From NCBI GenBank assembly GCA_963806495.1, contig CAWDYA010000007.1, forward strand, positions 371,945 to 435,944: 64,000 nt of DNA, in the 5' to 3' direction. Shown piece after piece: positions 1,515 through 54,368 of this stretch. How positions within the stretch are numbered: position 1 is the stretch's first letter; each line of letters begins with the position of its first letter. The translations under genes and the position numbers were made by a program. The notes beneath the pieces are model-generated. The model saw only the letters and a program-made list of their open reading frames with translations. It was not told the origin of the DNA and searched no databases. This stretch comes from an uncultured Acidobacteriota bacterium. GTDB taxonomy: Bacteria > Acidobacteriota > Polarisedimenticolia > JACPZX01 > DASXTC01.

Positions 1515-3329
1515 ATGGCATACAAGCCGATCGAGAGTTACGGCGTCATCGGGGATCTGCACAGCGTTGCCCTCGTGGGAAACGACGGCTCCATCGACAT
1601 GATGTGCTTTCCCAAGTTCGACTCACCGTCGATCTTCGCCGCCCTGCTGGACGACGAAAACGGGGGATGCTTCCGGATCGCCCCGGTCAGCGAGGAGGGG
1701 CAGCGCAAGCAGATCTACCTGCCCGACAGCAACGTGCTGCTCACCCGGTTCCTCCAGGACGAGGGGGTCTCGGAGGTGTCGGACTTCATGCCGATCGAGC
1801 GCGAGGAGAACCTGCACAATCTCGTGCGCCGGGCCAAGACGATCCGCGGCGAGGTACGCTTCCGGATGACCTGCGCGCCCCGGTTCGACTACGCGCGCGC
1901 GGAGCACCGGGTCGAGAAGAAAGGCAGGGAGGTGCTGTTCGTCTCGCGTGGCGACGACAGGACGGCGCTGAGGCTCGTCTGTTCGGTCCCGGTCCGTATC
2001 GTCAACGGCGCCGCCGTGGCCGAGTTCACGCTGCGCGGCAGCGAGACCGCCTCGTTCGTCCTGGAAGAGGCGCGCGAGGACATCGAGTCTCCCGCCGGGT
2101 CCGCGGAGTTCGTCTCCGAGGCGTTCAAGGACACGGTGAACTTCTGGAGGCGCTGGATAGGAAAGAGCAGCTATGCGGGCCGCTGGCGCGGGATGGTGAA
2201 CCGCTCCGCCCTCACGCTCAAGCTGCTCACCTCGGCCGAGCACGGCTCGATGGTGGCGGCGCCGTCGTTCGGCCTGCCCGAGGAAGTGGGCGGCTCGCGC
2301 AACTGGGATTACCGGTACACCTGGATACGCGACGCGTCGTTCACGCTCTACGCCCTGATCCGTCTCGGGTACACGGACGAGGCGGCCTCGTTCATGAGGT
2401 GGATCGAGGCGCGGTGCGGCGAGCTCGAGCCGGACGGCTCGCTGCAGATCATGTACGGGCTCGACGGGCGGCACGATCTGTCGGAGCAGACGCTGCCGCA
2501 CCTGAAGGGTTACCGCGGCTCGTCCCCCGTACGCATCGGCAACGAGGCGTTCCGGCAGCTCCAGCTCGACATCTACGGCGAGCTCCTCGATTCGGTCTAC
2601 CTGTACAACAAGTTCGGCGAGCCGATCTCCCACGACCTGTGGGACAACCTCGTGAGGCTGATCGACTGGGTGTGCGCCAACTGGCGACGGGAGGACGCCG
2701 GGATCTGGGAGATGCGCGGAGCGACCCGGCAGTTCCTCTACTCCCGGCTGATGTGCTGGGTGGCGGTGGATCGCGGCATCCGCCTGGCGTCGAAACGCTC
2801 CTTCCCCGCTCCGCTCGACCGCTGGTACGGCGTGCGCGACTCCATCTACCGGGACATCTTCACCAGCTTCTGGGATCCAAAGCGCAAGGCGTTCGTCCAG
2901 TACGAGGGCTCCGGCGTGATGGACGCGGCGAACCTGCTGATGCCCCTCGTCCGGTTCATAGGCCCCACGGATCCCCGCTGGCTCACGACCCTCGCGGCGA
3001 TCGATGAGGACCTTGCCTACGACTCGCTGCTGTTCCGCTACAAGATCGAGGACGAGCGATCCGACGGGCTGGCCGGCCGCGAGGGGACCTTCAACCTGTG
3101 CTCCTTCTGGTACGTGGAGAACCTGTCACGCTCGGGTGACGTGGAGAAGGCCCGCTTCTATCTGGAGAAGATGCTCGGCTACGCCAACCACCTCGGCCTG
3201 TACTCCGAGGAGATCGGGCCGCGGGGCGAGCACCTCGGCAACTTCCCCCAGGCGTTCACCCATCTGGCGCTGATCAGCGCGGCGCATCACGTCGATCGGA
3301 GCCTCACGCAGGCGGGCGGAGCGCCTTGA
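1515..3329 (+). CDS. Glycoside hydrolase family 15 (glucoamylase/glucodextranase/trehalase-like)
   Basis: 604-aa ORF starting '[20 protein letters not shown]', full-length GH15-like N-terminal and catalytic-domain motifs, protein-like composition throughout. Confidence 0.85.
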
Positions 3330-3353
3330 GGCGGGTGCCGGCCGGAGCCGGCG

Positions 3354-4160
3354 TCAGCGGTCCAGGCCGACCGGCCGGGCGGCGGGCCGCTTCGCGCTCA
3401 CGGCGGCCCCGGCACGGGCGGTATCGAGCACGCGGGGCAGCGACGCCCCCGGCCCCGCCATGAGCTTTCTCCGGCCGAGGCGGTGCACGAGCGTCTCGTG
3501 ACGGGTCCTGAGCCCGAGCCTCACGCGGAGCCAGGCGAGGGTGCCGAGCGAGACGTTGATGATGCCGTCGGGCACCTTGGTCCCGGCCCGGTAGTACGGC
3601 ACCTCGACGGTCCAGGAGTTTTCGATCCGGTACCCAAGGCTGCCGGCGATGATCCCCAGCTCCTGCTCGCACGAGTACTTGTAGCCGTTGTAGTAGCTGA
3701 GCAGCTCCGGCACCTTGCCCACCCGGATCACCCGCAGCCCGCACTCGACATCCGCGTAGCGGTAGCCGCTCAGCAGGGAGGCGAACAGCGAGAGACCCCA
3801 GTTGCCGATCTTCTTGAAGCGCGGGTAGTGCGAGAAGTCGCGCCGCGTGAGGAGCATGTCGAGATCCTTCGAGACGGTGGTCTCCGCCAGGCTGTCGATC
3901 GAGTCGACCGTGTGCTGCCCGTCGGCGTCGAACGTATAGAGGAGATCGTCCGGTCTGAGTTCGCCGTCCTCGAGAAGCAGCGCCACGAGCGCGAGCCCGT
4001 CCTTGAGCGCGGAGGCCTTCCCCTTGTTGACCGGGTTGTCGATGACGTAGGAGCGCGGATGCCCCTGGCTCCACCTGGCCAGGATTTCGGGCGAGGCGTC
4101 CCGCGAGCCGTCGTTGACCGCGATCGTGAGGTCCATCCGGGCGCTGAACGTCGCGAGCAC
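3354..4160 (-). CDS. Glycosyltransferase family 2 (polyprenol-phosphate sugar transferase-like)
   Basis: ORF from a GTG start. The conserved GT2 N-terminus 'SEIAVVPVYNEAQNLER' continues in frame upstream to about 4211 with no ATG/GTG/TTG; an ATG at 4213-4215 is one base out of frame, so the true start is probably about 4215 with an indel just after it. 'DADGQH' motif present. Confidence 0.8.
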   Translation of the reverse strand: MLATFSARMDLTIAVNDGSRDASPEILARWSQGHPRSYVIDNPVNKGKASALKDGLALVALLLEDGELRPDDLLYTFDADGQHTVDSIDSLAETTVSKDLDMLLTRRDFSHYPRFKKIGNWGLSLFASLLSGYRYADVECGLRVIRVGKVPELLSYYNGYKYSCEQELGIIAGSLGYRIENSWTVEVPYYRAGTKVPDGIINVSLGTLAWLRVRLGLRTRHETLVHRLGRRKLMAGPGASLPRVLDTARAGAAVSAKRPAARPVGLDR

Positions 4161-4229
4161 CCGCTCGAGGTTCTGCGCCTCGTTGTAGACCGGAACGACG
4201 GCGATCTCTGATCATCGGGGCTCCATGCC

Positions 4230-5240
4230 TCATACCCAGCGCAGGATGTTCTTTACCGACTTGATGTTGAGATCGCCGAGGTAGTTGATCTCGATCGCCG
4301 AGTTGCAGCAGCACTCCGGGCACCGCGCGTAGGTCATGTCCGGCAGCGACTCGAACGCCTTCTTCACCCCGTCCCGCACGCAGTTGCCCCCCTTCGTCTT
4401 GGGGAGCCCCCGCATGTCGAAGCAGGAGTAGCAGTCGCCGTTCGTGTCGATGTAGCAGAACAGCTTGCCGGAGTAGCAGCGGGGGAACTTGTCGTACGTC
4501 CCGTTGAGCCGGTACGTGTCCCGGACGAACTCGAGCGTCGCCTCGGACGCGCCGATGTGCTTGTTGCGCTTCTTCTCCTCGATCAGCCACTCGACCGTGC
4601 GGCGGTGCTCGTCCTTGTCGGGATAGAGCGGATCGAGCCGGTCGCCGGCGAGATAGTGGTCCGACAGGTTTCCGAAATCGCAGTAAAAATCGAGCTCCTC
4701 GGCCTTTCGCACCACCCACTCGACGTAGTCGAGATCGCCCTTGGTGAGGGGCGTGAAGGTCCAGACCTTGATCCCGATCTCACGGAACACCTTGATCGCC
4801 TCGAGGGCTTTCTCCCAGGCGTCCTTCATGTTGCGCTGGCGGTCGTGGACCTCCTTCGGGCCGTCCAGGCTGATGAACACCAGATCGAGCTTGCGCAATT
4901 CCTCGATCTTCCGTCTCGCCAGCAGTCCATTGGAGTTCATGCTGGTGAAGATGCCGTGGCCTTTGGCCGTGTCGATCAGAGTGCCGATGTCGGCGCGCAG
5001 CGACGCCTCGCCGCCGGTCATCACCACGCGCTCGCATCCGAGCTCGCCCAGCTCATCGATGATCCCGACGAGCTGCGGGGTGCTCAGGTCGCGCATGTTC
5101 CTCAGGGGTATGTCGCAATACTCGCACCGCTGGTTGCAGCGGTCCGTAACGGACAAGGAGACGGCGAGAGGGCGTTTGGTGCCCAGAAAATGCGTCTGGG
5201 CGATCTTGGCCCCGGTCGTGATCTCCTGAAGGAGCTTCAT
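4230..5240 (-). CDS. Radical SAM enzyme with C-terminal Cys-rich SPASM/twitch-like domain (MoaA/PqqE-like)
   Basis: 336 aa; 'SVTDRCNQRCEYC' CxxxCxxC motif near the N-terminus; C-terminal region with 9 Cys ('CYSGKLFCYIDTNGDCYSC ... CPECCC'); AGGTG Shine-Dalgarno 6 nt upstream. Confidence 0.85.
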   Translation of the reverse strand: MKLLQEITTGAKIAQTHFLGTKRPLAVSLSVTDRCNQRCEYCDIPLRNMRDLSTPQLVGIIDELGELGCERVVMTGGEASLRADIGTLIDTAKGHGIFTSMNSNGLLARRKIEELRKLDLVFISLDGPKEVHDRQRNMKDAWEKALEAIKVFREIGIKVWTFTPLTKGDLDYVEWVVRKAEELDFYCDFGNLSDHYLAGDRLDPLYPDKDEHRRTVEWLIEEKKRNKHIGASEATLEFVRDTYRLNGTYDKFPRCYSGKLFCYIDTNGDCYSCFDMRGLPKTKGGNCVRDGVKKAFESLPDMTYARCPECCCNSAIEINYLGDLNIKSVKNILRWV

Positions 5241-6123: not shown

Positions 6124-6968
6124 GATCCATCCCTGGCCGCGTGATGCTCGCGGATCGAGCAGAAGCGGAACTCGCGCAGGAGCCGGGAGTACTTGGCCAG
6201 CGCGCCGCGCAGACCCCAGTAGTGATACCAGGTGTGCCGCGCGGGCAGGCCCGGCACGCGCGGCTGGTCGGCATCCAGCTCCCACGGGTGCATGTACACC
6301 ACGGCCGGTCGTCCCTTTCCGTTCATCCGCCGGAGCGCGGCGGCAGTGAGCGTGTAGGGCAGGAGCCGGAAGAAGATCCCACCCGCCACCGGGATCGTCA
6401 GTCCCCCGATCCTCACGGCCGCCGGCGGGTACTCGGTCAGGCCGTCCTGGATCGGGTGGATGTCGAGACGCGCGTTCTTGACACCGTACATCCAGGTGCG
6501 CAGCGGGAAGATGCTCGAGTCCACCCGGTAGCCGCTTCGGCTCAGCGCCGGCAGGGCCCAGGGGCACCGCTCCGTGATCGACCACGAGGGCGCCCTGAAT
6601 GCCACCACCGGCTCGCCCGCGAGCTCGGACAGCACTCCCGCCGAATCCCGAAGCTGAGTCTCGAACGCCTCCGGCGTGAGGGAGTAGACGAGATCGTGGT
6701 AGTAGCTGTGGCTCGCGATCTCGTGGCCTCCTTCGCGGATGCGGCGGATCAGTCCGGGGTGCGCGGCCGCAACGCAGCCCAGGGTGAAGAAGGTCGCCGT
6801 CGAGCCGTTTTCGGCGAGCAGCGCGAGCAGGCGGTCGGTCTGCGCCTCCACACGGCTCTCCAGAGCGGACCACCGCTCGCGCGGCAGGTCGAAATCGTTG
6901 CCGTGGAACCACTCCTCGACGTCGATGGTGAGTATGTTGCGCATGCTGGCCATCCTCAGGATGGGCAT
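6120..6968 (-). CDS. Polysaccharide deacetylase (NodB-like; resembles the EPS/PEP-CTERM-locus subfamily)
   Basis: Real part of ORF 6120..7715: 'MRNILTIDVEEWFHGND', 'HEIASHSYYH'. Start could be ATG at 6968, 6953 or 6944; upstream part of the track ORF is artefact. Confidence 0.8.
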   Translation of the reverse strand: MPILRMASMRNILTIDVEEWFHGNDFDLPRERWSALESRVEAQTDRLLALLAENGSTATFFTLGCVAAAHPGLIRRIREGGHEIASHSYYHDLVYSLTPEAFETQLRDSAGVLSELAGEPVVAFRAPSWSITERCPWALPALSRSGYRVDSSIFPLRTWMYGVKNARLDIHPIQDGLTEYPPAAVRIGGLTIPVAGGIFFRLLPYTLTAAALRRMNGKGRPAVVYMHPWELDADQPRVPGLPARHTWYHYWGLRGALAKYSRLLREFRFCSIREHHAARDGS

Positions 6969-6972
6969 TATA

Positions 6973-9207
6973 ATGCCGCGACCTGACTTGCCGAGCGAGC
7001 GGAGGACGTCTGCCTTGGGATCCGAAACAACCGTAACGCCCGCAGTGTCCGGAGCGGGACCCCGGCTCCGGGTCGCACTGGCCACGGGCCTGTCCACGGG
7101 CATCCTGCTGGCGCTGATGGAGACGGCGGGCGTGCTCGCAAGCGCCGGCGCCCCCGGGGCCGCGCCCCTGGACATCCTTGTCCTCGCGACCTGGCTGGCC
7201 GTGCCGTATGTGGCGGCCCTGGGCGCGCTCGCGGCGGTCCTCGCGCTGCTCGTCCGCCCCCCGGAGGCCGCCCGGGCCCTGACGGTGGGGCTGGCCGTCG
7301 CCGTCGCTCTCGCGATGTGGCTTCGTACCCTGCTGCGGCTTGGCGAGGGGACCGCGGCGTACCCGGTGCTGGAGCTGCTCCTGGCGGGAGCGGCCTGCGC
7401 CGCCGGGGCCGCCTTCGGAATGCTGGCCGGTCGGGCCCGGCCGGGCGGGTTCCGGCGGGGGCCCTTGCTCTGGGGAGGCCTCGCCGCCCTGGCCGCGCTG
7501 GTGGCGCAGAGCGGCAACGTATCGGGCGCGTTCGGCGCGCCGGGGACACCGGCGCCGCTCGCCTGGCGGGTGGGTCTGGCCGTCGCCGTGGGTCTGGCGG
7601 TGGCGGCGGCGAGGCGCTTCCTGCCAAGGCTCGGGTCTCTGCATCCGGCGGCCGGCCGGATGGCTCGCATCGCCGGATTCGTGGCGGCGGCCGGCTGGGT
7701 CGTCTTCTGCGGCAACGGTGTTGCCCGGATGCTGTCGGTGCCGGAGGTCGCGTGGACATCGTCGCTTCAGGGGGAGGGCTCCGCATCGAGGCCCAACGTC
7801 ATCCTGATCTCAATCGACACCTTGCGGGCGGATCATGTTTCCAGCTACGGCTACAGGCGGCGCACCACGCCGGGGATCGATCAGCTCGCCGCCTCGGGGG
7901 TCCTCTTCGCGCACGCCGTCTCCACGGCGAGCTTCACGACACCGGCGCATGCCTCCATGATGACCGGCCTTTTCCCCACCAGCCACGGGGCGCAGTACCA
8001 GAGCGAGAACCCCGATGCGTTCGTCATCGCTCCGATCGCGCCTTCCGTGCCGACCCTCGCGGAGATCCTCGAGGATCAGGGGTACGACACCGCGGGGTTC
8101 GTCGCCTCGCCCATGGTGGGGCGGCAGTTCGGCTTCTCGCGCGGCTTCCGGGTTTTCGACGACCACTATGATCGCCTCAGCTCGGTGCGCGGGCAGATGT
8201 TCGCGCGCACCACCCCGTTCCGACTGCTCCGGCGGGCCGGCATGTTCGACGCGCGGGATCTCGACGCCGAGCGCAAGGCGGACGAGGTGAACGCCGCGGT
8301 CGTGCGCTGGATCGAGGCCCGACGCGGCGCGCCCGCGCCGTTTTTCCTGTTCGTGCACTACTACGACCCGCACGCGCCGTACGCCGCGCCCGGGCGTCCG
8401 ATCGAGACGGACCCTGCCCCCCGTCACGTCGCGTACGATCTCGATCTGCTGCTGCGCGGCCAGTACACGCTTTCAGTCGGCGCTCGCGACGTGGTGGTCG
8501 CGCGCTACGACGAGGAGATCGCATACACGGATCGCGCGCTGTCGCGCCTGCTCGACGCGCTCGGCCGTTCGGTTCTCGACAACAGCCTGGTCATCGTCAC
8601 CTCGGACCACGGGGAGAGCTTCGGGGAGCACGGCCACTGGGGCCACAACATCCTCCTGTACGAGGATCTCCTCGACGTGCCGTTCATCGTCCGCCCCCCC
8701 GGCGGCGCGGCTGCAGGGCGCGTCATCGACGATGTCATCGTGCAGCCGACCGACATCCTGCCGACGGTTCTCTCGTGGCTCGGCATCCGTGCTCCCGCGG
8801 GGACGCAGGGCAGGGATCTCGCCGGCCTCATCCGCGGGGACGGCGGCGACGCGGCCGGCGAGCATGCCCCCGATCCTCACGTCCGGCAGCTCGCGTTCTC
8901 CGAGCTGGCCCGCAACGTCGGCTGGGTCCGTCGCTGGGGCCCCGCGCTCGACCGCGACCTGCTTGCGGCGCGGGCCGGGCGGTGGAAGTACATCCGTTCG
9001 TCGGCGGGGGCGGAGGAGCTCTACGATCTGCAGGCGGACGCCGCCGAGTCGATCAATCTGGCTTCGGCGGACCCGGTTGCCCTGGACTCGATGCGACAGT
9101 TGATGGACGCTTGGCGGCTCACCCAGACGCGGCATCTCGAAAACGAGAACACTCCCCTCGACGAGGGGCTGCTCGAGAACCTCAGGAGCCTCGGCTATGT
9201 CCAGTAG
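6973..9207 (+). CDS. Membrane-anchored sulfatase-like hydrolase/transferase, Thr-nucleophile type (LtaS/EptA-like), paralog 1
   Basis: Real part of ORF 6739..9207. Hydrophobic multi-helix N-terminus, then 'PNVILISIDTLRADH'. The sulfatase C-x-P-x-R position reads 'FTTPAHASMMTG'. Ends 'DEGLLENLRSLGYVQ'. Confidence 0.75.
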   Translation: MPRPDLPSERRTSALGSETTVTPAVSGAGPRLRVALATGLSTGILLALMETAGVLASAGAPGAAPLDILVLATWLAVPYVAALGALAAVLALLVRPPEAARALTVGLAVAVALAMWLRTLLRLGEGTAAYPVLELLLAGAACAAGAAFGMLAGRARPGGFRRGPLLWGGLAALAALVAQSGNVSGAFGAPGTPAPLAWRVGLAVAVGLAVAAARRFLPRLGSLHPAAGRMARIAGFVAAAGWVVFCGNGVARMLSVPEVAWTSSLQGEGSASRPNVILISIDTLRADHVSSYGYRRRTTPGIDQLAASGVLFAHAVSTASFTTPAHASMMTGLFPTSHGAQYQSENPDAFVIAPIAPSVPTLAEILEDQGYDTAGFVASPMVGRQFGFSRGFRVFDDHYDRLSSVRGQMFARTTPFRLLRRAGMFDARDLDAERKADEVNAAVVRWIEARRGAPAPFFLFVHYYDPHAPYAAPGRPIETDPAPRHVAYDLDLLLRGQYTLSVGARDVVVARYDEEIAYTDRALSRLLDALGRSVLDNSLVIVTSDHGESFGEHGHWGHNILLYEDLLDVPFIVRPPGGAAAGRVIDDVIVQPTDILPTVLSWLGIRAPAGTQGRDLAGLIRGDGGDAAGEHAPDPHVRQLAFSELARNVGWVRRWGPALDRDLLAARAGRWKYIRSSAGAEELYDLQADAAESINLASADPVALDSMRQLMDAWRLTQTRHLENENTPLDEGLLENLRSLGYVQ

Positions 9208-9360
9208 AAACTGCCCGACCATGGTGCGCCTGGCCGGACGGGGCGACCAGTGTGGAAGGCCCGGCCGGCGCGTTGGAAGGCCGCCGGCCGCCGGGGCAGG
9301 CGCATGCCGGCCGGGGCCGGCGCCCGGGGCATCCCGAGGTCTTCGCCGGGCGGCGCCAAG

Positions 9361-11583
9361 ATGAACGAAGTCAAGGGGTTGTCGGATAGCATGGAGCGCG
9401 GCGAGCGCACGGTCGTCGGGCAGTTTCAGCGAGTCACTTCCGGGTTGGTGGTGGCCACCGCCTCGGGTCTGCTCCTCGGTCTGATGGAGACGGCCGGGAT
9501 CCTCTCGCAGCACGGCGCTCCATCGGGATCGTCGATCGACATCCTCGTGACCGCCACCTGGCTGGCGTTGCCGTATGCCGCGACGATCGCGATGGCCGCC
9601 CTGATGGTCGCTTTCGCGGTTCCGGCGCCCGGTCTGTCGCGGGGGCTGGCGGCCGGGATCGGGGGCGGGGTGGTCCTGCTGCTCTGGATCAGGACGCTGG
9701 CGAACCTGGGAGAGGGGAGCGCGGCGTATCCCGTCCTGGAGCTGCTCGTCGTCGGCGTGGCCTGCGCCGGTGGCATGGCGGCCGGGATGCTGGCGGCGAG
9801 ACCGGCCCCGGGGGGAGGCCGGACGCTGATGATCGGGGCCGGTATGGCGGGGCTGGCGGCCCTGGTGGCGTCGAGCCGGAACATCCCCGGTCCTTTCGGC
9901 CGACCCGGGCCGCCCGCAGGCTTCGGCGGCCGGCTGCTCTGGGCGGTGATCGTTGCGGCGGCTGTGGCAGCCGTGATCGTGATGGCACGCGCCCTCGCCT
10001 CACGCGGGGAGGGCGCCCGGTGGCTCGTGCGGGGCCTTGCGGCCGCGAGCGCGGTCGGGTGGGTCATCTACTGCGGATCAGGTTTCGTCCACATGCTGGG
10101 TTGGTCGGGGTCCGAGCCTCGTCTGCCGGAGGCCGGCGCCGTCGAGCCGGGACGGCCCAACGTCATCCTGATATCGATCGATACCCTGCGTGCCGACCAT
10201 CTGTCGTGCTACGGCTACGGGCGGCCGACCACGCCCGGCATCGACGGGTTCGCGGCGTCCGCCGTGCTGTACCGCAACGCCTCGTCCACCGCGAGCTTCA
10301 CCCTCCCCGCGCACGCGTCCATGATGACCGGACAGTTCCCCTCGAGCCACGGCGCGACGTATCAGAACCGAGATCCGGGAAGCTTCACGCTGCGGGGCAT
10401 CCGTCCCGGCTCGCCGATGCTGGCGGAGATCCTGCGCGAGCGCGGATACGACACGGCCGCCTTCGTCAGCGGGCCGCTGCTGAGCCGGCACTTCGGCTTC
10501 GACAGGGGGTTCCGCATCTACGATGATCGGTACGACCGACTCCAGAGCGCGCGCGAGCGACTGTTCGCGCGGTCCTTCCTGTTCCGGGTCCTCTACCGCC
10601 TCGGCGTGTTCTCGGACCGCGATCTCGACGCGCAGCGCACGGCGGGGGAGGTGAACCCGCTCATGGACGACTGGCTCGCAAAGCGCCGGGGATCCACGAG
10701 ACCGTTCTTCCTCTTCGTCCACTACTGGGATCCCCACGGGCCGTACGCCCCGCCGGCCCCGCTCGACGAGCGGCCGGACGGGACTCCTATCCGGGTCGAC
10801 TACGACATGGACCGGCTGCTGATCGGCGACTACACGTACACGCCGGAGGCGCTTGCGGATCTGATCACGCTCTACGACGGCGAGATCCAGTGGGTCGATC
10901 GGCATGTCGCCGCGCTGCTCGACCGGCTGCGCGCCAACAGGCTGCTCGACGGCGCCCTGGTGATCCTGACCGCAGACCATGGCGAGAGCTTCGGTGAGCA
11001 CGATCACTGGGAGCACAGCCGGGTGCTGTACGAGGATGTGCTGCACGTGCCGTTCATCATGAAGCTGCCCGGGGAACGTGACGGCGGCCGCGTGGTCGAG
11101 GACGTCGTCGCGCAGCCCACGGACATCCTTCCCACGGTGCTCGCCGAGGCGGGGATTCAGACGCCGCCAGAGGTCGAGGGGCGGAACCTGCTCGCCTTCC
11201 TCGAGCCGGACGGTGACGCAGGTGCGTCCGGGCAGGCCGAGTCGCACGTCCGGGGGCGCGGGCTGGCGTTTGCGGAGCTCGATCGCAACGTGGACTGGCC
11301 CGAGCGATGGGGCGCCCGGTTCGACCGGGACCTGGTCTCGGCGCGGACCCTCCGTTACAAGTACATCCACTCCTCCACCGGCGAGGAGGAGCTGTACGAT
11401 CTGCGGACGGATCCGGGCGAGCTGACCAATCTGGCGTCCGTGGATCCGTCGGCGGCGTCAGCGATGCGACAGCTCGTCGAGGCATGGCGCAAGGCACTCT
11501 CGATCGCGTCGCCGGATGAGCGACAGGAGCAGATCGATGAAGGGTTGCTGGAGAATCTCAGGAGCCTCGGCTATGTCCAGTGA
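9361..11583 (+). CDS. Membrane-anchored sulfatase-like hydrolase/transferase, Thr-nucleophile type (LtaS/EptA-like), paralog 2
   Basis: Real part of ORF 9250..11583, start 'MNEVKG'. Same architecture as paralog 1 ('PNVILISIDTLRADH', 'FTLPAHASMMTG') and identical C-terminal tail 'DEGLLENLRSLGYVQ'. Confidence 0.75.
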   Translation: MNEVKGLSDSMERGERTVVGQFQRVTSGLVVATASGLLLGLMETAGILSQHGAPSGSSIDILVTATWLALPYAATIAMAALMVAFAVPAPGLSRGLAAGIGGGVVLLLWIRTLANLGEGSAAYPVLELLVVGVACAGGMAAGMLAARPAPGGGRTLMIGAGMAGLAALVASSRNIPGPFGRPGPPAGFGGRLLWAVIVAAAVAAVIVMARALASRGEGARWLVRGLAAASAVGWVIYCGSGFVHMLGWSGSEPRLPEAGAVEPGRPNVILISIDTLRADHLSCYGYGRPTTPGIDGFAASAVLYRNASSTASFTLPAHASMMTGQFPSSHGATYQNRDPGSFTLRGIRPGSPMLAEILRERGYDTAAFVSGPLLSRHFGFDRGFRIYDDRYDRLQSARERLFARSFLFRVLYRLGVFSDRDLDAQRTAGEVNPLMDDWLAKRRGSTRPFFLFVHYWDPHGPYAPPAPLDERPDGTPIRVDYDMDRLLIGDYTYTPEALADLITLYDGEIQWVDRHVAALLDRLRANRLLDGALVILTADHGESFGEHDHWEHSRVLYEDVLHVPFIMKLPGERDGGRVVEDVVAQPTDILPTVLAEAGIQTPPEVEGRNLLAFLEPDGDAGASGQAESHVRGRGLAFAELDRNVDWPERWGARFDRDLVSARTLRYKYIHSSTGEEELYDLRTDPGELTNLASVDPSAASAMRQLVEAWRKALSIASPDERQEQIDEGLLENLRSLGYVQ

Positions 11584-41392: not shown

Positions 41393-41495
41393 GGCCCCAT
41401 CGTCGCAGGATGCCGGGTCGCCCGCAACTCGGCGTCGTGGCGGTGTCGCTGACCGGTGCCACAACCGCCGATGGTGTAGTAGGATCGGCGCCGGT

Positions 41496-41571
41496 GGGCC
41501 GTTAGCTCAGTCGGTAGAGCATCTGCCTTTTAAGCAGAGGGTCGCTGGTTCGAGTCCAGCACGGCTCACCA
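41496..41571 (+). tRNA. tRNA-Lys (anticodon TTT)
   Basis: 76 nt with encoded CCA; cloverleaf with 7-bp acceptor stem GGGCCGT/ACGGCTC (one G-T pair), anticodon stem TCTGC/GCAGA and loop CTTTTAA, T-loop GGTTCGAGTCC. Confidence 0.85.
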
Positions 41572-41574
41572 ACC

Positions 41575-42780
41575 TCAGCCCGCCTCTGCCACGGGCACGC
41601 ACGCCAGCGCCTGCTCGAGGTCGTCCCGCAGGTCCTCGACTGCCTCGCAGCCGACCGCCAGGCGGATCAGGTCGTCGCGGATGCCGGCGGCTTCACGCTC
41701 CTCACGCGGCAACGAGGCGTGCGTCATCGACGCCGGATGCTCGACGAGCGTCTCTACCCCGCCCAGCGAGACGGCGAGCGTGGCCAGCCGGAGCGCGTTG
41801 ATGACGGATCGCGACGCCTCGAAGCCTCCCTCCACGCCGAAGGTGATCATCGAGCCGAACCCGCTCATCTGGCGACGGGCGAGCTCGAACTGGGGGTGCG
41901 TGGGAAGCCCGGGGTAGGAGACCCACGCCACGGCCGGATGCTCCGAGAGCCAGGAGGCCAGGTGCGCCGCGTTCTCCTGCGCCCGCTGCACGCGCAGCGA
42001 CAGCGTCCGGATGCCACGCAGCACCAGCCACGCCTGATGCGGATCGATCGTCCCGCCGAGCCCGCGCAGCATCGAGGAGAGTCCGGCGTAAGCGGCCTCG
42101 TCGTTCGCCACGATGACACCCGCCACGACGTCGCTGTGGCCGTTGAGATACTTGGTCATGCTGTGCACGACGATGTCGGCTCCATGCCGGAACGGCTGCT
42201 GCACCAGGGGAGAGGAGAAGGTGTTGTCCACCACGAGCAGCGCGCCGGTGTCGTGCGCGAGCCGGGCGCAGGCCTCGATGTCCGTCAGCTTGAGCGTCGG
42301 ATTGGCCGGTGTCTCGATGAACAGCAGCTTCGTCTCGGGACGCATCGCCGCACGCACGGCGTCGATGTCCTCGGTCGGGACCCAGCTCGAGAGGATCCCG
42401 AACCGCGCGAGCTGCTTCTCGAGCAGCACCCGCGTGGGCCCGTAGACAGCGTCCGTCCCCACCACGTGATCGCCCGCCGCGAGCGTCGCGAGGAACACGG
42501 TCGAGATCGCCGCCATCCCGGACGCCGTGGCCAGCGCATCGTACCCGCCCTCCAGCTCCGCCACGCACCGCTCGAGCGCGCGGGTGGTCGGGTTGCCGAG
42601 CCGGGTGTACTTGAAGCCCGGGTCCCGGCCGGCGAAGCGGGCGGCGCCCTCGTCGGTGTCCCTGAACGAGAAGGTGGATGACTGGTAGATCGGCACGGAC
42701 ACGGCGCCGTACTGCGGGTCGGGCTCGGGGCCGCCGTGAATGGCCAGGGTGTCGGGACGTCGGGAACGGTGCTCCGGCAT
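41575..42780 (-). CDS. PLP-dependent Cys/Met-metabolism enzyme (methionine gamma-lyase / cystathionine gamma-synthase family)
   Basis: 401 aa; 'HSMTKYLNGHSDVVAG' with the PLP-binding lysine, full-length family match. Confidence 0.85.
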   Translation of the reverse strand: MPEHRSRRPDTLAIHGGPEPDPQYGAVSVPIYQSSTFSFRDTDEGAARFAGRDPGFKYTRLGNPTTRALERCVAELEGGYDALATASGMAAISTVFLATLAAGDHVVGTDAVYGPTRVLLEKQLARFGILSSWVPTEDIDAVRAAMRPETKLLFIETPANPTLKLTDIEACARLAHDTGALLVVDNTFSSPLVQQPFRHGADIVVHSMTKYLNGHSDVVAGVIVANDEAAYAGLSSMLRGLGGTIDPHQAWLVLRGIRTLSLRVQRAQENAAHLASWLSEHPAVAWVSYPGLPTHPQFELARRQMSGFGSMITFGVEGGFEASRSVINALRLATLAVSLGGVETLVEHPASMTHASLPREEREAAGIRDDLIRLAVGCEAVEDLRDDLEQALACVPVAEAG

Positions 42781-42836
42781 GACGTGTCTCCTATTTATTC
42801 CATTCTACCCGATCGATCGAACAGGCATGAGGAACC

Positions 42837-43865
42837 TCACAGACCCACGGCCATCATCCCTGCCCCGAGCGCGAGCCCCGCCATCGTGTTGACCGCCTTG
42901 ACCCGGAGGAACTCGCGACGCGACTCGGCCAGCAGCGGCAGCATGCCGTGGCCGTCCTGCACCACGCACGAGGCGGCCAGCACCGAGAAGGGGATCGCTC
43001 CCTGCGCGAACAGGGTCACGAAGATCATGTGCGGACCCGATTCGGGAATGATGCCGACGACGGTGGCGGCCAGCAGCGCCCACACCTTCCGATGCTCGAC
43101 GAATGCGGCGAGAGGAATCTCGGCCCACTCGAGCCAGGCCAGGACGAGCAGGATCCCGAGCACCCAGAGGAAAACGCGGGGGAGATGCTTCCTTGCGACA
43201 TGCCTGTACAGATGCTCCTGGAGGAAATGCTCCGGGGCGATGAGAACCACCACGAGTCCCGCGGTGGCGACGAGCACCACCGAGATGCGGATCCAGCTCC
43301 AGTCCGGCGGCCCCAGCCAGCCGACGACGAGCGCGAGAAGGAGCATCATCAGGCCCGTGGCGAGAGTGGCCCGGGCGAGGCTCCAGTCGACGAGTGAGGT
43401 CACCGACAATCGCGCGCGGACCAGCTCCTGCTGCTCACCGTGAAGGGCGATGCCATCCGGACAGGGCTCGCAGTCGTAGAACCGCGGCTTTGTGGTGCGT
43501 TGCACGAGAAGCGCGACGAGGATGCCGTAGGCGAGCAGCAGCAGAAACAGCAGGAGCGCCTGTCTGGGGAAGAGAGCCAGCATCACGAACGCCTCGTCGC
43601 CGCTCGAGGCGATCATGGCTCCCGTCAGGGTGCCGAACGGGATCATCCGGTGCGTGTAGAGGGTGACGTTGGTGAAGGCGCCGAGACAGCCCGGGACGGT
43701 TCCGACCAGCGCGGCGGCCGCCGTGGCCGTCACGCCGCCACGTTGCAGCCAGCGGCCGAGGAATCCCGCCGTCACGACCTGGGCGTACTCGACGAGGATC
43801 ATCATGACGAAGACGAACCCCGTCACCATGATCGCCTCGGCGAGAACATCGCCGGCCCGGTCCAT
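42837..43865 (-). CDS. Polytopic membrane permease (two-repeat architecture; possibly ArsP_2/DUF2899-like)
   Basis: ORF 42837..43928 with start chosen at 'MDRAGDVLAEAIMVTGFVFV' (GGAGGAGGA Shine-Dalgarno); about 8-10 hydrophobic helices, Cys motifs 'GTVPGCLGAF' and 'DCEPCPDG'. Family assignment is tentative. Confidence 0.6.
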   Translation of the reverse strand: MDRAGDVLAEAIMVTGFVFVMMILVEYAQVVTAGFLGRWLQRGGVTATAAAALVGTVPGCLGAFTNVTLYTHRMIPFGTLTGAMIASSGDEAFVMLALFPRQALLLFLLLLAYGILVALLVQRTTKPRFYDCEPCPDGIALHGEQQELVRARLSVTSLVDWSLARATLATGLMMLLLALVVGWLGPPDWSWIRISVVLVATAGLVVVLIAPEHFLQEHLYRHVARKHLPRVFLWVLGILLVLAWLEWAEIPLAAFVEHRKVWALLAATVVGIIPESGPHMIFVTLFAQGAIPFSVLAASCVVQDGHGMLPLLAESRREFLRVKAVNTMAGLALGAGMMAVGL

Positions 43866-44212
43866 CACGCCTGCTCCCTCTCCTCCTCCGGCGCGTGTCG
43901 CCGGCCGCGACGCCGATTGCCGGCCCACGCCACCGAGCCGCCCGCGATGCGGATCGCCTTACCGCTCACCAGCGCCTCGGCGATCTTGCGCCGCGCGGCC
44001 GCGACGATCCGTCCGAAGGTGGCGCGCGATACACGCATCCGCTCGGCCGCCGCGTCCTGATAGAGACCCTCGAGATCAGCGAGACGGACGGCCTCGAGCT
44101 CGTCGATCCCGAGGGCGACCTCCTCGAGACGTTTGAGGGGAACCCCCCGCGGCTTGAAATAATCGTATCCGGGAGGGCCGGCCACACGGCGGCAACAGGG
44201 GCGACGAGGCAC
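43865..44212 (-). CDS. DUF134/UPF0251-family predicted DNA-binding protein
   Basis: Real part of ORF 43865..44278. A GTG start gives 'PRRPCCRRVAGPPGYDYFKPRGVP', matching the family N-terminus as I recall it, and avoids a 65-nt overlap with the upstream gene; helix-turn-helix-like 'RVSRATFGRIVAAARRK'. Confidence 0.6.
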   Translation of the reverse strand: MPRRPCCRRVAGPPGYDYFKPRGVPLKRLEEVALGIDELEAVRLADLEGLYQDAAAERMRVSRATFGRIVAAARRKIAEALVSGKAIRIAGGSVAWAGNRRRGRRHAPEEEREQA

Positions 44213-44213
44213 C

Positions 44214-44618
44214 TCAGGACCCTCCACACCCGCCGCGGTGCCGATGACCCGCCGGCTCGCCCAGGACGTGTCGTCCATCGCAGGCGTCCTTCGCGTCGAG
44301 CACGGTCGTCAGACCATGGCTGAAATCGCTGACGGCCTCGCTCGCCCGCGTCGCCCCGGTGACGAGCACGCGGATGCCGGCCTTGTTGAGGGCACCGACC
44401 GCCCGCTTGCCGGCGCCCCGGCAGACCACGGCCTCCACGCCTCGTCCCGCAAGAGGCTTCGCGGGCGCGCACGTGGCCTCGCCGTGCGGGAGGTTGGGCA
44501 GGACGGTCACCTCCCCGGTGCTGGTGTCGAACAGGGTGAGGAAACGGGCACGTCCGATGTGGTCCGAGACGACGGCCTCGAGTCCCCGGTTGGTCTCCGT
44601 GGGAACGCAGATCCTCAT
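44214..44618 (-). CDS. NifX/NifB-type dinitrogenase FeMo-cofactor-binding domain protein
   Basis: 134 aa; 'MRICVPTETNRGLEAVVSDHIGRARFLTLFD' and 'GVEAVVCRGAGKRAVGALNKAGIRVL'; GAGGAGGA Shine-Dalgarno 7 nt upstream. Confidence 0.65.
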   Translation of the reverse strand: MRICVPTETNRGLEAVVSDHIGRARFLTLFDTSTGEVTVLPNLPHGEATCAPAKPLAGRGVEAVVCRGAGKRAVGALNKAGIRVLVTGATRASEAVSDFSHGLTTVLDAKDACDGRHVLGEPAGHRHRGGCGGS

Positions 44619-44666
44619 GACGGGTCCTCCTCTCTATTTCGCGCTGCGGCACGCTCTTCCATATTA

Positions 44667-44680
44667 TGAGCATATGCTCA
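44667..44680. promoter_or_regulatory. Perfect 14-bp palindrome TGAGCATATGCTCA (candidate operator)
   Basis: Sits in an AT-rich stretch about 50 nt upstream of the NifX-like start codon, inside the likely promoter region. Confidence 0.35.
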
Positions 44681-44852
44681 AAAAGATTCAAGAGGGAGGG
44701 CGAGCCTCGCCGGATCTGTCGTCATCGGAAGTGATCCGGGCCGCCCCCGCAGCCGATGAAGCGCCGTCACCGGATCGGGCCAGGGGCGGCGGCCACTTGA
44801 GGCGCCACGCCGGGGTGGTGTACCCTACGCCCCCGCTTGTCCCGGGACGCGC

Positions 44853-44930
44853 GTCCCCATCGTCTAGCCAGGCCTAGGACACAGCCCTTTCAAGGCTGCA
44901 ACACGGGTTCGAATCCCGTTGGGGACGCCA
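44853..44930 (+). tRNA. tRNA-Glu (anticodon TTC)
   Basis: 78 nt with encoded CCA; acceptor GTCCCCA/TGGGGAC, anticodon loop CTTTCAA; very close to the canonical bacterial tRNA-Glu sequence. Confidence 0.85.
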
Positions 44931-45004
44931 AGCCGGCCCCGCCGCTACCGGCGCGTCTGAGGTTCTCTCGCCGAGGTGACACCGCCAGCGGGCCAAGAAC
45001 AATG

Positions 45005-45160
45005 GGAAAATGCCCCCCACTCGTGTGAAGAAACACCGATCAAGTTGAATTATTTGAGCAGGTTGCAGTCGCTCCCGGCTTGCCGGCGCCTGCCCCCGGT
45101 GAACGGCACGGTGGAGGCGGCTCGTGCTGCGCACCTTCACACCAGTGGGGGGCATTTTCC
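45005..45160. repeat. Long inverted-repeat element (MITE-like), 26-bp arms flanking about 104 bp
   Basis: Left arm 45005-45030 (GGAAAATGCCCCCCACTCGTGTGAAG) pairs with the reverse complement of 45135-45160 at 25 of 26 positions. The interior includes an AT-rich stretch ('caagttgaattatttgag'). About 75 bp downstream of tRNA-Glu. Confidence 0.45.
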
Positions 45161-45260
45161 AAAATAATTCGACCATCCCGGCATCCCGCCCGTAGTTATG
45201 ATTACAGCGTCCCGCGGCCCCCGCGGGGCACAAAGGCCATTCGACTCAGGAGGGTCGCCC

Positions 45261-46430
45261 ATGTCGGAGAAAACCCCCAGGACAAGGTATTTCAGGCACC
45301 TCGCCGTCGTGGCGATCGCAGCGGCCGCCGGAGTGGCGCTTCTGGTCGCCGCCGCCCCGGCTCCCGCGGCCCTCGCGGCGCACCCGGCCGACACCATCGC
45401 GGCCGCCGCACCGCCGGCCCCGCCGGCGCCTCCAGCCTCCCCGGCGGCCCCCGCGCCACCGGCTCCCCGCGAGCGCGATCACCGCGGCTGGCTGGGCGTC
45501 GTGCTGAGCGATCAGGGCGATGGCGTGGTCATCCGCTCGGTCGTCGGCGACAGCCCCGCGGACGAGGCGGGACTCAAGCGCGGCGACAGGATCGTCGAGT
45601 TCGAGGGGCGCCGCATCGACGAGTCCGATGACCTGATGGACGTGATGCGGGGCCTGAGACCGGGCGATCGGGTGAAGATCAAGGTCGATCGGGACGGCTC
45701 GCAGGAGACCCTCAGCGCCACGCTGGGCGAGTCGAAGCGCCGGATGGTTCAGCGCTTCGAGTGGAAGGGCGAGGGGGACGACGATATGGACGGCCCCAAC
45801 GTCATCTTCAACGACGAGGGTGGCCATGGCCACCATCAGTTCATGGTGCTCACCTCCGGGCCGATGCTGGGTGTGGAGATCCTCCCGATGAGCGAGGATC
45901 TGAGGGCCCACTTCCGCGCACCGAAGGACTCGGGTCTGCTGGTCAACCGCGTGGTAAAGGATTCACCCGCGGATCGCGGCGGCGTGCGTGCGGGCGACGT
46001 GATCCTGGAAGTGGACGGGCAGGAGATCTCCGACTCGGGCGACATCCGTGACGCGCTGTCCGACCACAAGGCGGGCGACCGCGTGCCGGTGAAGGTGGTG
46101 CGCGACGGCAACGACGTGACGCTGGACGTGACACTCGACGAGGAGCACTCGTTCGGTCATCCGCGTCACGGCGCCTTCTACGTTGGTCCGGATGCAATCG
46201 GGATCGGCGAGGGCGTCGTCTCGGTCGACGAAGAGGAGATTCAGCGGGCGGTCGAGGAGGCCCAGCGCGCGCTGAAAGAAGCCATGGAGGAGATGCACCT
46301 CCAGATGAAGGAGCAGCACGAGAAGCAGAAGGAGATGGAGCAGGAGATCCGGGAGAAGCTCGAAGAACTCGATCACGACCAGCAGGAGACGGTCACGCGC
46401 GTCCACCGGGTCGTCACCTACGACATCTGA
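45261..46430 (+). CDS. Secreted tandem-PDZ-domain protein with Pro/Ala-rich linker and acidic C-terminal coiled-coil
   Basis: ORF 45198..46430 with start chosen at 'MSEKTPRTRYFRHLAVVAIAAAAGVALLVAAA'; two PDZ-like units ('GLKRGDRIVEFEGRRI', 'GVRAGDVILEVDGQEI'); Glu/Lys/Gln-rich C-terminus. Confidence 0.7.
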   Translation: MSEKTPRTRYFRHLAVVAIAAAAGVALLVAAAPAPAALAAHPADTIAAAAPPAPPAPPASPAAPAPPAPRERDHRGWLGVVLSDQGDGVVIRSVVGDSPADEAGLKRGDRIVEFEGRRIDESDDLMDVMRGLRPGDRVKIKVDRDGSQETLSATLGESKRRMVQRFEWKGEGDDDMDGPNVIFNDEGGHGHHQFMVLTSGPMLGVEILPMSEDLRAHFRAPKDSGLLVNRVVKDSPADRGGVRAGDVILEVDGQEISDSGDIRDALSDHKAGDRVPVKVVRDGNDVTLDVTLDEEHSFGHPRHGAFYVGPDAIGIGEGVVSVDEEEIQRAVEEAQRALKEAMEEMHLQMKEQHEKQKEMEQEIREKLEELDHDQQETVTRVHRVVTYDI

Positions 46431-53712: not shown

Positions 53713-53740
53713 TTGACAGGGGTCGACTCCGGGCTATAAT
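53713..53740 (+). promoter_or_regulatory. Consensus sigma70 promoter (TTGACA, 16-nt spacer, TATAAT)
   Basis: Both hexamers match consensus exactly; about 60 nt upstream of the outer-membrane protein start, which has a GAGGAG Shine-Dalgarno. Confidence 0.6.
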
Positions 53741-53801: not shown

Positions 53802-54368
53802 ATGAGGAAGGCGCCCCTCTTCCTGACCTTGATAGCAAGCGTCATGTTCCTTCCTGCGGCCAACGCCAAGAACCGGGACCACTCCTACGAGTTCGGGCTG
53901 GGCTTTGCCCATGTGGACGCGGACAGCCATGAGGGGATCGACAACTCCACAGGCCCCACCATCCGTTTCGGCTACCACTTCTCCGCCAAGATCGAGGCGG
54001 AGGTCCATGCGGGCTGGAGCAGCACGCAGGTCTACGGCCATGATGCCGACTTCCTCCGGACGGCCGCCCTCATCACCGGCAACTTCCTCACCGACCGCGA
54101 GACCAATACGATCCCCTACGTTTCCGCCGGGCTGGGAGTCATCAACGAGACCATCAAGTCCTACAAGGACTCCAACGGTAACCAGGTCCTCGAATCGTTC
54201 GATTCCGCCGCCCTGCTCACCCTGGGCGTGGGCGCCCGCACCTTCTTCACCGATAACTGGGCCATCCGCTACGAGGGCCGGTACAACCACCATAACACCT
54301 TCGACATGAACCAGGACGAATACGTCGTCTCGGTGGCGGTGACCTGGATCGTCGGGGGAGAGAAGTAA
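53802..54368 (+). CDS. Small outer-membrane beta-barrel protein (OmpA-N/OmpW-like)
   Basis: 188 aa; signal peptide 'MRKAPLFLTLIASVMFLPAANA'; alternating aromatic/Gly strands ('FGLGFAHVD', 'IRFGYHF'); C-terminal 'VAVTWIVGG'. Confidence 0.75.
   Translation: MRKAPLFLTLIASVMFLPAANAKNRDHSYEFGLGFAHVDADSHEGIDNSTGPTIRFGYHFSAKIEAEVHAGWSSTQVYGHDADFLRTAALITGNFLTDRETNTIPYVSAGLGVINETIKSYKDSNGNQVLESFDSAALLTLGVGARTFFTDNWAIRYEGRYNHHNTFDMNQDEYVVSVAVTWIVGGEK

Follow-up and report, generated by a model that had tools for sequence, protein, structure and literature searches.

A single-copy 156-bp inverted-repeat element, possibly a MITE-like insertion, between tRNA-Glu and the predicted ECF-type promoter of a PDZ-protein gene

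The locus described here lies in a window of 64 kb (the whole stretch of DNA that was analysed). It comprises a tRNA-Glu gene, a short inverted-repeat element and the gene of a two-PDZ-domain protein, with an operon running divergently upstream. Its features are the following:

42837-43928, minus strand: ArsP_2 permease gene, divergent upstream operon
43865-44278, minus strand: DUF134 gene, divergent upstream operon
44214-44618, minus strand: gene of a NifX-like protein, divergent upstream operon
44797-44826, plus strand: probable tRNA-Glu promoter, TTGAGG-18 nt-TACCCT, read from the sequence; outside the element
44853-44930, plus strand: tRNA-Glu (anticodon UUC) with encoded CCA (ARAGORN; Rfam tRNA, 58.8 bits)
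44976-45003, plus strand: putative sigma-70-like match GTGACA-16-AACAAT (consensus scan, 9/12)
45005-45030, no strand: left 26-nt terminal inverted repeat, GGAAAATGCCCCCCACTCGTGTGAAG
45031-45134, no strand: 104-nt core, non-coding, with an A/T-rich left third and a G+C-rich right part
45135-45160, no strand: right 26-nt terminal inverted repeat, CTTCACACCAGTGGGGGGCATTTTCC
45136-45165, plus strand: putative outward sigma-70-like match TTCACA-18-CAAAAT (consensus scan, 9/12)
45168-45194, plus strand: predicted ECF-sigma-type promoter, TTCGACC (45168-45174), N16, CGTA (45191-45194); motif conserved in four independent loci
45261-46430, plus strand: two-PDZ-domain protein of 389 aa, secreted or membrane-anchored (Pfam PDZ_2, E = 2e-40, two stretches), with an AGGAGG ribosome-binding site

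The surroundings are those of an ordinary chromosome. A Pfam scan of about 34 of the larger ORFs of the window, which is a non-exhaustive annotation, returned sulfatases, histidine-utilisation enzymes, glycosyltransferases, methionine gamma-lyase and other ordinary chromosomal genes; it gave no match to a transposase, integrase, reverse-transcriptase or Ro-like domain. The nearest named protein matches belong to Candidatus Eisenbacteria and Acidobacteriota MAGs. The only repeat families of the window are a paralogous sulfatase gene pair and a 91-nt repeat at the window start. The two sulfatase genes stand in tandem (6739-9207 and 9250-11583), encode large, membrane-anchored proteins and share segments that are 76-90% identical in DNA and lie about 2.37 kb apart. 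Elsewhere in the window, a perfect sigma-70 consensus (TTGACA-16-TATAAT, 12/12) at 53713-53740 on the plus strand stands upstream of a candidate gene at 53802-54368 (a stop-to-stop ORF), which shows that this high-G+C host uses canonical sigma-70 promoters.

The left arm of the element begins 74 nt after tRNA-Glu, in line with the 75 bp given by the first-pass annotation, and 237 bp separate tRNA-Glu from the ECF-type promoter. The 13-mer GGTGGTGTACCCT (44814-44826) is probably the -10 region of the tRNA-Glu promoter; it is identical in the related locus L003 (4704-4716) and lies 24-26 nt before the tRNA start in both. Proximity to a tRNA gene is the one point that favours a remnant attachment site, as first suggested, or the border of an integrated element targeting tRNA-Glu. 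However, the window has only one occurrence of the 26-nt 3' end of tRNA-Glu when up to 3 mismatches are allowed, the scanned ORFs yielded neither an integrase nor any other mobile-element domain, the genes on either side are ordinary chromosomal ones, and the order tRNA-Lys, tRNA-Glu, PDZ gene is common to L003. Since these defining features failed their tests, this suggestion fell away and we consider such an origin very improbable.

The inverted repeat itself was recovered exactly where it had been described. Of the 26 positions of the arms (45005-45030 and 45135-45160), 25 are complementary; the arms lie 104 nt apart and give an element of 156 bp. Their sole mismatch is C-C on the plus strand (C-C or G-G depending on the strand), all other pairs are Watson-Crick with zero G-U pairs in the duplex, and the pairing breaks off sharply at the inner as well as the outer edge of each arm. 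In an exhaustive scan of the 64-kb window for 26-nt inverted repeats with a span of up to 460 nt, this repeat ranked best, and the maxima in 20 first-order Markov simulations of the window were 20-22/26. Moreover, the arm sequence at up to 3 mismatches is present only at these two sites in the window, and two matches occurred in 0/100 shuffles. The 156-bp inverted-repeat element is real, non-coding and single-copy wherever it was searched for.

An A/T-rich stretch unusual for this genome had been reported inside the element, and the composition confirms it: the G+C content of 45031-45062 is 37.5% versus 67.8% in the window, and 20-mers with a G+C of 35% or less make up just 0.26% of the window's 20-mers. 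The right part of the core has 75% G+C, and the whole element shows a mild A/T enrichment (61.5% G+C versus 67.8%). The overlapping ORFs, initially judged spurious, are so by their placement: 44874-45233 on the minus strand runs antisense through tRNA-Glu, while 45080-45631 on the plus strand and 45137-45397 on the minus strand lie across the true PDZ gene in another frame or in antisense orientation. A filter on codon-position G+C, which recovers the window's real genes, lists none of these three ORFs, and the element is thus covered by no protein ORF. Two reading frames of 12 and 41 aa inside the element, seen by eye, have no ribosome-binding site and no hydrophobic toxin-like character, and were discarded. 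A candidate IHF site in the core, read from the sequence, was also rejected: only its ATCAA core matches and the full WATCAANNNNTTR consensus does not.

When folded as RNA with short flanks, the element reaches -89.2 kcal/mol on the plus strand (z = -6.8) and -86.2 kcal/mol on the minus strand (z = -5.7). The entire fold signal sits in the arms, because the 104-nt core alone shows no stability beyond that of its shuffles (z = -0.67 on the plus strand and +0.99 on the minus strand). The arm pairing is retained in the minimum-energy fold of the full 423 nt that run from the tRNA up to the start codon. No covariance model of Rfam 15 matched over the element when positions 44000-46000 were searched at E<=10, the 4 matches listed being at the tRNA or within the PDZ gene, and over the whole window only the two tRNAs passed the gathering score; a known RNA family was therefore rejected. 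Of the long structured RNA proposed by the first-pass annotation, the pairing of the arms stands, whereas the core is unstructured, Rfam offers no match and the spacer of a relative has no counterpart. The near-equal folds of the two strands, the lack of G-U pairs and the sharp edges are more readily explained by terminal repeats at the level of the DNA than by an RNA helix that has evolved.

These data also bear on whether the element might be a lineage-specific sRNA or a cis-acting RNA hairpin that owes nothing to a transposon. Such an RNA would start from GTGACA-16-AACAAT, be closed by a long helix of its 5' and 3' ends and terminate at the G+C-rich clamp of the right arm and the AUUUU that follows. 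The GTGACA-16-AACAAT match ends one base short of the left arm, and a transcript from it could begin at about 45009-45011, within the left arm. Read from the sequence, such a start would leave the AUUUU after GUGGGGGGC unpaired, in a terminator-like geometry, and the fold of the whole element (z = -6.8) agrees with an RNA of this kind. Around the element, the consensus scan gave 3 sigma-70-like matches in 800 nt versus 0.0 expected from shuffles. On the other hand, the E<=10 search of Rfam gave nothing, the structure of the core does not exceed chance, G-U pairs and strand asymmetry are both lacking, and the syntenic loci L003/L004 hold no counterpart. A perfect helix of 21-26 bp is moreover unusual in stable bacterial sRNAs and would invite cleavage by RNase III, which counts against this explanation. 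Taken together, we consider an sRNA or cis-acting hairpin unlikely, without being far-fetched.

Long terminal inverted repeats around some 100 nt that include a long G+C-rich hairpin also recall the msr-msd RNA of retrons, bounded by its a1/a2 inverted repeats, and the retron msr-msd layout indeed resembles a repeat-bounded hairpin RNA of this sort. Nevertheless, the next gene encodes the PDZ protein and has its own conserved promoter, and a reverse transcriptase is missing both as a gene directly downstream and as a domain among the scanned ORFs. Because its defining features failed in this way, a retron-type ncRNA is the least probable of the explanations that we considered.

The PDZ protein has an N-terminal hydrophobic segment in its translation, and its closest homologues are 38-41% identical. 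A comparison of the regions upstream of this gene revealed a shared promoter motif. The window, L002, L003/L004 and L005 each carry ACC-N16-CGTW a single time within the 250 nt that precede the start codon, the spacer being always 16 nt and the motif lying always 66-82 nt before the ATG and always after an A/T-rich tract. The positions of the conserved promoter (xGACC-N16-CGTW) are:

window: 45168-45194
L002: 1096-1122
L003: 4941-4967
L004: 969-995
L005: 389-415

ACC-N16-CGTW has a background frequency in the window of 1.3e-4 per nt and strand, which gives about 0.03 expected per 250-nt region, so that chance would be very unlikely to produce three more independent occurrences. ECF sigma promoters have an AAC-type -35 and a CGT-type -10, as in TGAAAC-N16-CGTA of Bacillus subtilis sigma-W, and we take TTCGACC-N16-CGTA to be a promoter of this type. 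Its conservation suggests that this two-PDZ-domain gene family may belong to an extracytoplasmic stress regulon. The conserved ECF-type promoter is the more useful by-product of our analysis, and it fixes the position of the element relative to the PDZ promoter: with 45160 as its last base, the element stops 7 nt short of the -35 and therefore lies outside the 5' UTR made from the conserved promoter. The PDZ mRNA is predicted to start near 45201, about 7 nt past CGTA. This predicted 5' UTR holds a structure of its own at 45209-45229, a 9-bp G+C hairpin with a 3-nt loop and one G-U pair (GUCCCGCGG-CCC-CCGCGGGGC), downstream of the CGTA -10 and upstream of the AGGAGG ribosome-binding site.

The short distance from the right arm to the conserved -35 and the near identity of the two arms might also be expected of paired inverted protein-binding sites, 130 bp apart from centre to centre, through which a regulator would loop the DNA upstream of the ECF-type PDZ promoter. 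However, operator half-sites are typically far shorter than an arm of 26 nt, sites of this kind are missing from the orthologous promoters in L002, L003 and L005, and no regulator gene adjoins the locus. Paired regulator sites thus appear quite improbable to us, if less so than an attachment site.

Relatives were compared at the same locus. In L003/L004 the order tRNA-Lys, tRNA-Glu, PDZ gene is preserved and tRNA-Glu is almost identical; their spacer between tRNA-Glu and the PDZ start measures 224 nt versus 330 nt in the window, that is, 106 nt less. This shorter spacer contains no comparable inverted repeat, does not align to the spacer of the window and has no significant structure (z = -0.19). 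Since L003/L004 lack the element, it is not a conserved feature of the locus; their PDZ protein is about 40% identical, which makes them too distant for a true empty site. A closer relative is the metagenomic locus L058, with about 89% nucleotide identity over the methionine gamma-lyase gene; a population with this identity at the neighbouring gene is present in JGI sample 3300022562. In its region 2944-4659, which corresponds to 41460-43313 of the window, the methionine gamma-lyase gene is kept, the ArsP_2 gene is present only as a remnant and unrelated genes lie beyond. Neither tRNA-Lys nor tRNA-Glu was detected on L058, which is rearranged and ends short of the tRNA-Glu locus. Because a relative with 89% identity is rearranged in this way, gene order around the locus is fluid even among close relatives. 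For the NifX-like neighbour, homologues reach 65% identity at most, and neither of the two such homologues whose loci were examined is syntenic.

No second copy of the element was found in the 64-kb window. In GTDB (185,579 species genomes, one each) a 19-mer of the arm gave a single chance match, in coding DNA of Verrucomicrobiae; the element's own two arms are absent from the matches, so the set scanned excludes the source genome. The same search of the JGI metagenomes returned six single-arm chance matches, none of which extended past the seed. In IMG/VR, an arm 15-mer had 46 chance matches, and neither a 19-mer of the core nor the gapped pattern of both arms was found. Comparison with the PLSDB plasmids and INPHARED phages by blastn gave G+C-rich noise only, and no parent IS with matching ends was detected in the window or in the collections searched with the arm sequence. 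As the source genome lies outside the scanned set, any family of such elements may be confined to that genome. The first-pass annotation had named two observations that would together speak against its proposal, namely the lack of other copies and the conservation of the sequence in relatives; no copies were found, whereas the conservation was not borne out.

A further inverted repeat of the window, 9207-9229 with 9405-9427 (23 nt, 87% complementary, 175 nt apart), runs from the last base of the TAG stop of the first sulfatase gene into the start of the second. Its arm begins with a similar GAAAnTGCCC, and 9207-9427 was considered as a second member of the family; it was rejected, given that it has no BLAST similarity to the element and straddles the junction of the paralogous sulfatase genes.

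The flanks of the element were searched for a target-site duplication. No perfect flush direct repeat of any length from 2 to 12 is present. The best flush repeat pairs AGAACAATG in the left flank with AAAATAATT in the right and agrees at 6/9 positions; its empirical p, about 0.03 at that length alone, is non-significant over the 11 lengths. Both flanks are A/T-rich amid 68% G+C, and the A/T-richness of the right flank is also explained otherwise, because an A/T tract precedes the -35 in every orthologous promoter.

A single copy everywhere searched, sharp edges with no complementarity beyond them and the lack of a convincing target-site duplication would all be compatible with a neutral DNA palindrome, formed by a one-off inverted duplication and without function; a template switch during replication could, for example, have produced a reversed copy of 26 nt from upstream of the promoter. 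A second match can be cited for the same process: the core segment GTTGAATTATTT (45044-45055) matches AAATAATTCGAC (45162-45173) in inverted orientation at 11/12 positions. The latter, just past the right arm, comprises the A/T tract and most of the ECF-type -35. Chance, another inverted copy of the sequence upstream of the promoter, or a repeated binding motif could account for this match. Template-switch duplications, however, usually give short-loop hairpins and not a 104-nt unrelated spacer, and the origin of the core, including its A/T-rich third, would be left unexplained. We therefore rate an inverted duplication as an unlikely origin, on a par with the sRNA discussed above.

The explanation that we favour, with a probability of roughly 40%, is a MITE-like insertion that is solitary and specific to this lineage, or the last remaining copy of such an element. 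Prokaryotic MITEs are shorter than 500 bp, have terminal inverted repeats of about 4-30 bp and insert in A/T-rich intergenic DNA (2024 review, PMC10969869). With its 156 bp and no coding capacity, the element falls under the limit of about 500 bp, and its 26-bp arms (25/26) lie in the expected size range. The MITE-like nature claimed by the first-pass annotation thus receives support from the size, the non-coding character, the sharp 26-bp arms, the A/T-rich intergenic site and the absence from L003/L004; it is weakened by the fact that no second copy, parent IS or convincing target-site duplication (6/9) was found, and the only mild A/T enrichment of the element also speaks against it. The direct repeats of MITEs fade with age, and MITE transcripts form stable stem-loops (PMC10969869). 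A target-site duplication decayed at 3/9 positions beside arms that differ at 1/26 would nevertheless need something that keeps the arms matched, which counts against a MITE. From this balance we infer a transposon origin: a non-autonomous, IS-derived element, or its last surviving copy, may have inserted in the source lineage into an A/T-rich tract directly upstream of the -35 of the PDZ promoter. The element is a probable orphan of the MITE kind, and this reading of its origin is plausible and unproven.

Whatever its origin, the element might affect transcription between its neighbours. From the sequence we infer its transcription as well as any insulating, processing or promoter effects. 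Any RNA crossing the element, whether it reads through from tRNA-Glu or begins at the sigma-70-like site next to the left arm, would pair the arms into a 26-bp duplex. This duplex would present a G+C-rich clamp, GCCCCCCAC/GUGGGGGGC, followed by AUUUU, and might plausibly act as a roadblock or as an RNase III processing site in the manner of Correia elements. Upstream transcription would thereby be separated from the stress-controlled PDZ promoter. The right arm may in turn provide a promoter: the -35 hexamer of the outward match TTCACA-18-CAAAAT lies within it, and the -10 spans the boundary between arm and flank, so that the arm would give a -35-like hexamer to an outward sigma-70-like promoter. 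In a stronger form of this proposal, the hairpin has been domesticated, being either a new sRNA with its ends paired in a 21-26-bp helix or a co-opted MITE. It would serve as an insulator or RNase III site between the highly expressed tRNA-Glu and the ECF-controlled envelope-stress gene, and would keep the stress promoter tightly off. We hold this stronger form to be rather improbable.

If the element is a MITE relic, it adds one more small inverted-repeat element beside tRNA genes and promoters, here in a poorly sampled, uncultured high-G+C lineage. Its significance is small, and it would be a minor curiosity unless further copies or a transcript phenotype come to light.

Several known systems were compared with this architecture. 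The core sites R''/R' of integron attC sites read RYYYAAC ... GTTRRRY at the ends of the palindrome; the arm ends read from the sequence, GGAAAATG... and ...CATTTTCC, carry no such core-site motifs, and attC was rejected. REPINs, which are REP pairs mobilised by a RAYT, resemble the element in that two short inverted sequences form one long intergenic hairpin. They occur in tens to hundreds of copies, with shorter spacers and an accompanying RAYT gene, whereas the element was found once and has a spacer of 104 nt, and the scanned ORFs include neither a RAYT nor another transposase. With these defining features missing, identity with a REPIN was rejected as well.

Intrinsic terminators and SPRITE, a pneumococcal repeat that resembles a terminator, share with the element a G+C-rich end of the helix, a short U run and a position directly downstream of a strongly expressed tRNA gene. 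The hairpin is nevertheless no canonical terminator. The loop of an intrinsic terminator is 3-8 nt, in contrast to the 104 nt of the element, and the U run here has four residues only. A consensus scan found no plus-strand intrinsic terminator in 44600-45400, and terminator matches in the genome are barely above chance (10 versus 5.9 +/- 2.0 expected).

The Correia elements of Neisseria (CREE/NEMIS) have terminal inverted repeats of 26 bp, as does our element, and we take the sequence of its arms to be unrelated to theirs. They differ from it in further respects. The element is flanked by ...AATG and AAAA..., with no TA duplication, shows no sequence similarity to them and resides in an unrelated host; a single copy of it was found, while Correia elements exceed 100 copies per genome. 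In common they have the size class, sigma-70-like hexamers in or at the terminal inverted repeats and an expected RNase III substrate (PMC10969869). Sigma-70-like promoters have been described in the ends of MITEs, and RNase III cleaves the transcribed terminal inverted repeats of Correia elements (PMC10969869).

Among prokaryotic MITEs in general, represented here by QMITE2 of Coxiella burnetii and MITEAba12 of Acinetobacter, the element differs in that no second copy, clear target-site duplication or parent IS was found and that it has no sequence similarity to any element in the collections searched. It nevertheless shares with them a short, non-coding body, 26-bp terminal inverted repeats, a core of about 100 nt and an A/T-rich intergenic site, as well as a stem-loop that would be very stable if transcribed and promoter-like hexamers at its ends (PMC10969869). 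The copy number of MITEAba12 goes down to 1 per genome (PMC10969869). In QMITE2, terminal inverted repeats of 23-29 bp enclose a core of 113-145 bp, and the direct repeats measure 7-9 bp (PMC10969869), a geometry very close to that of the element described here.
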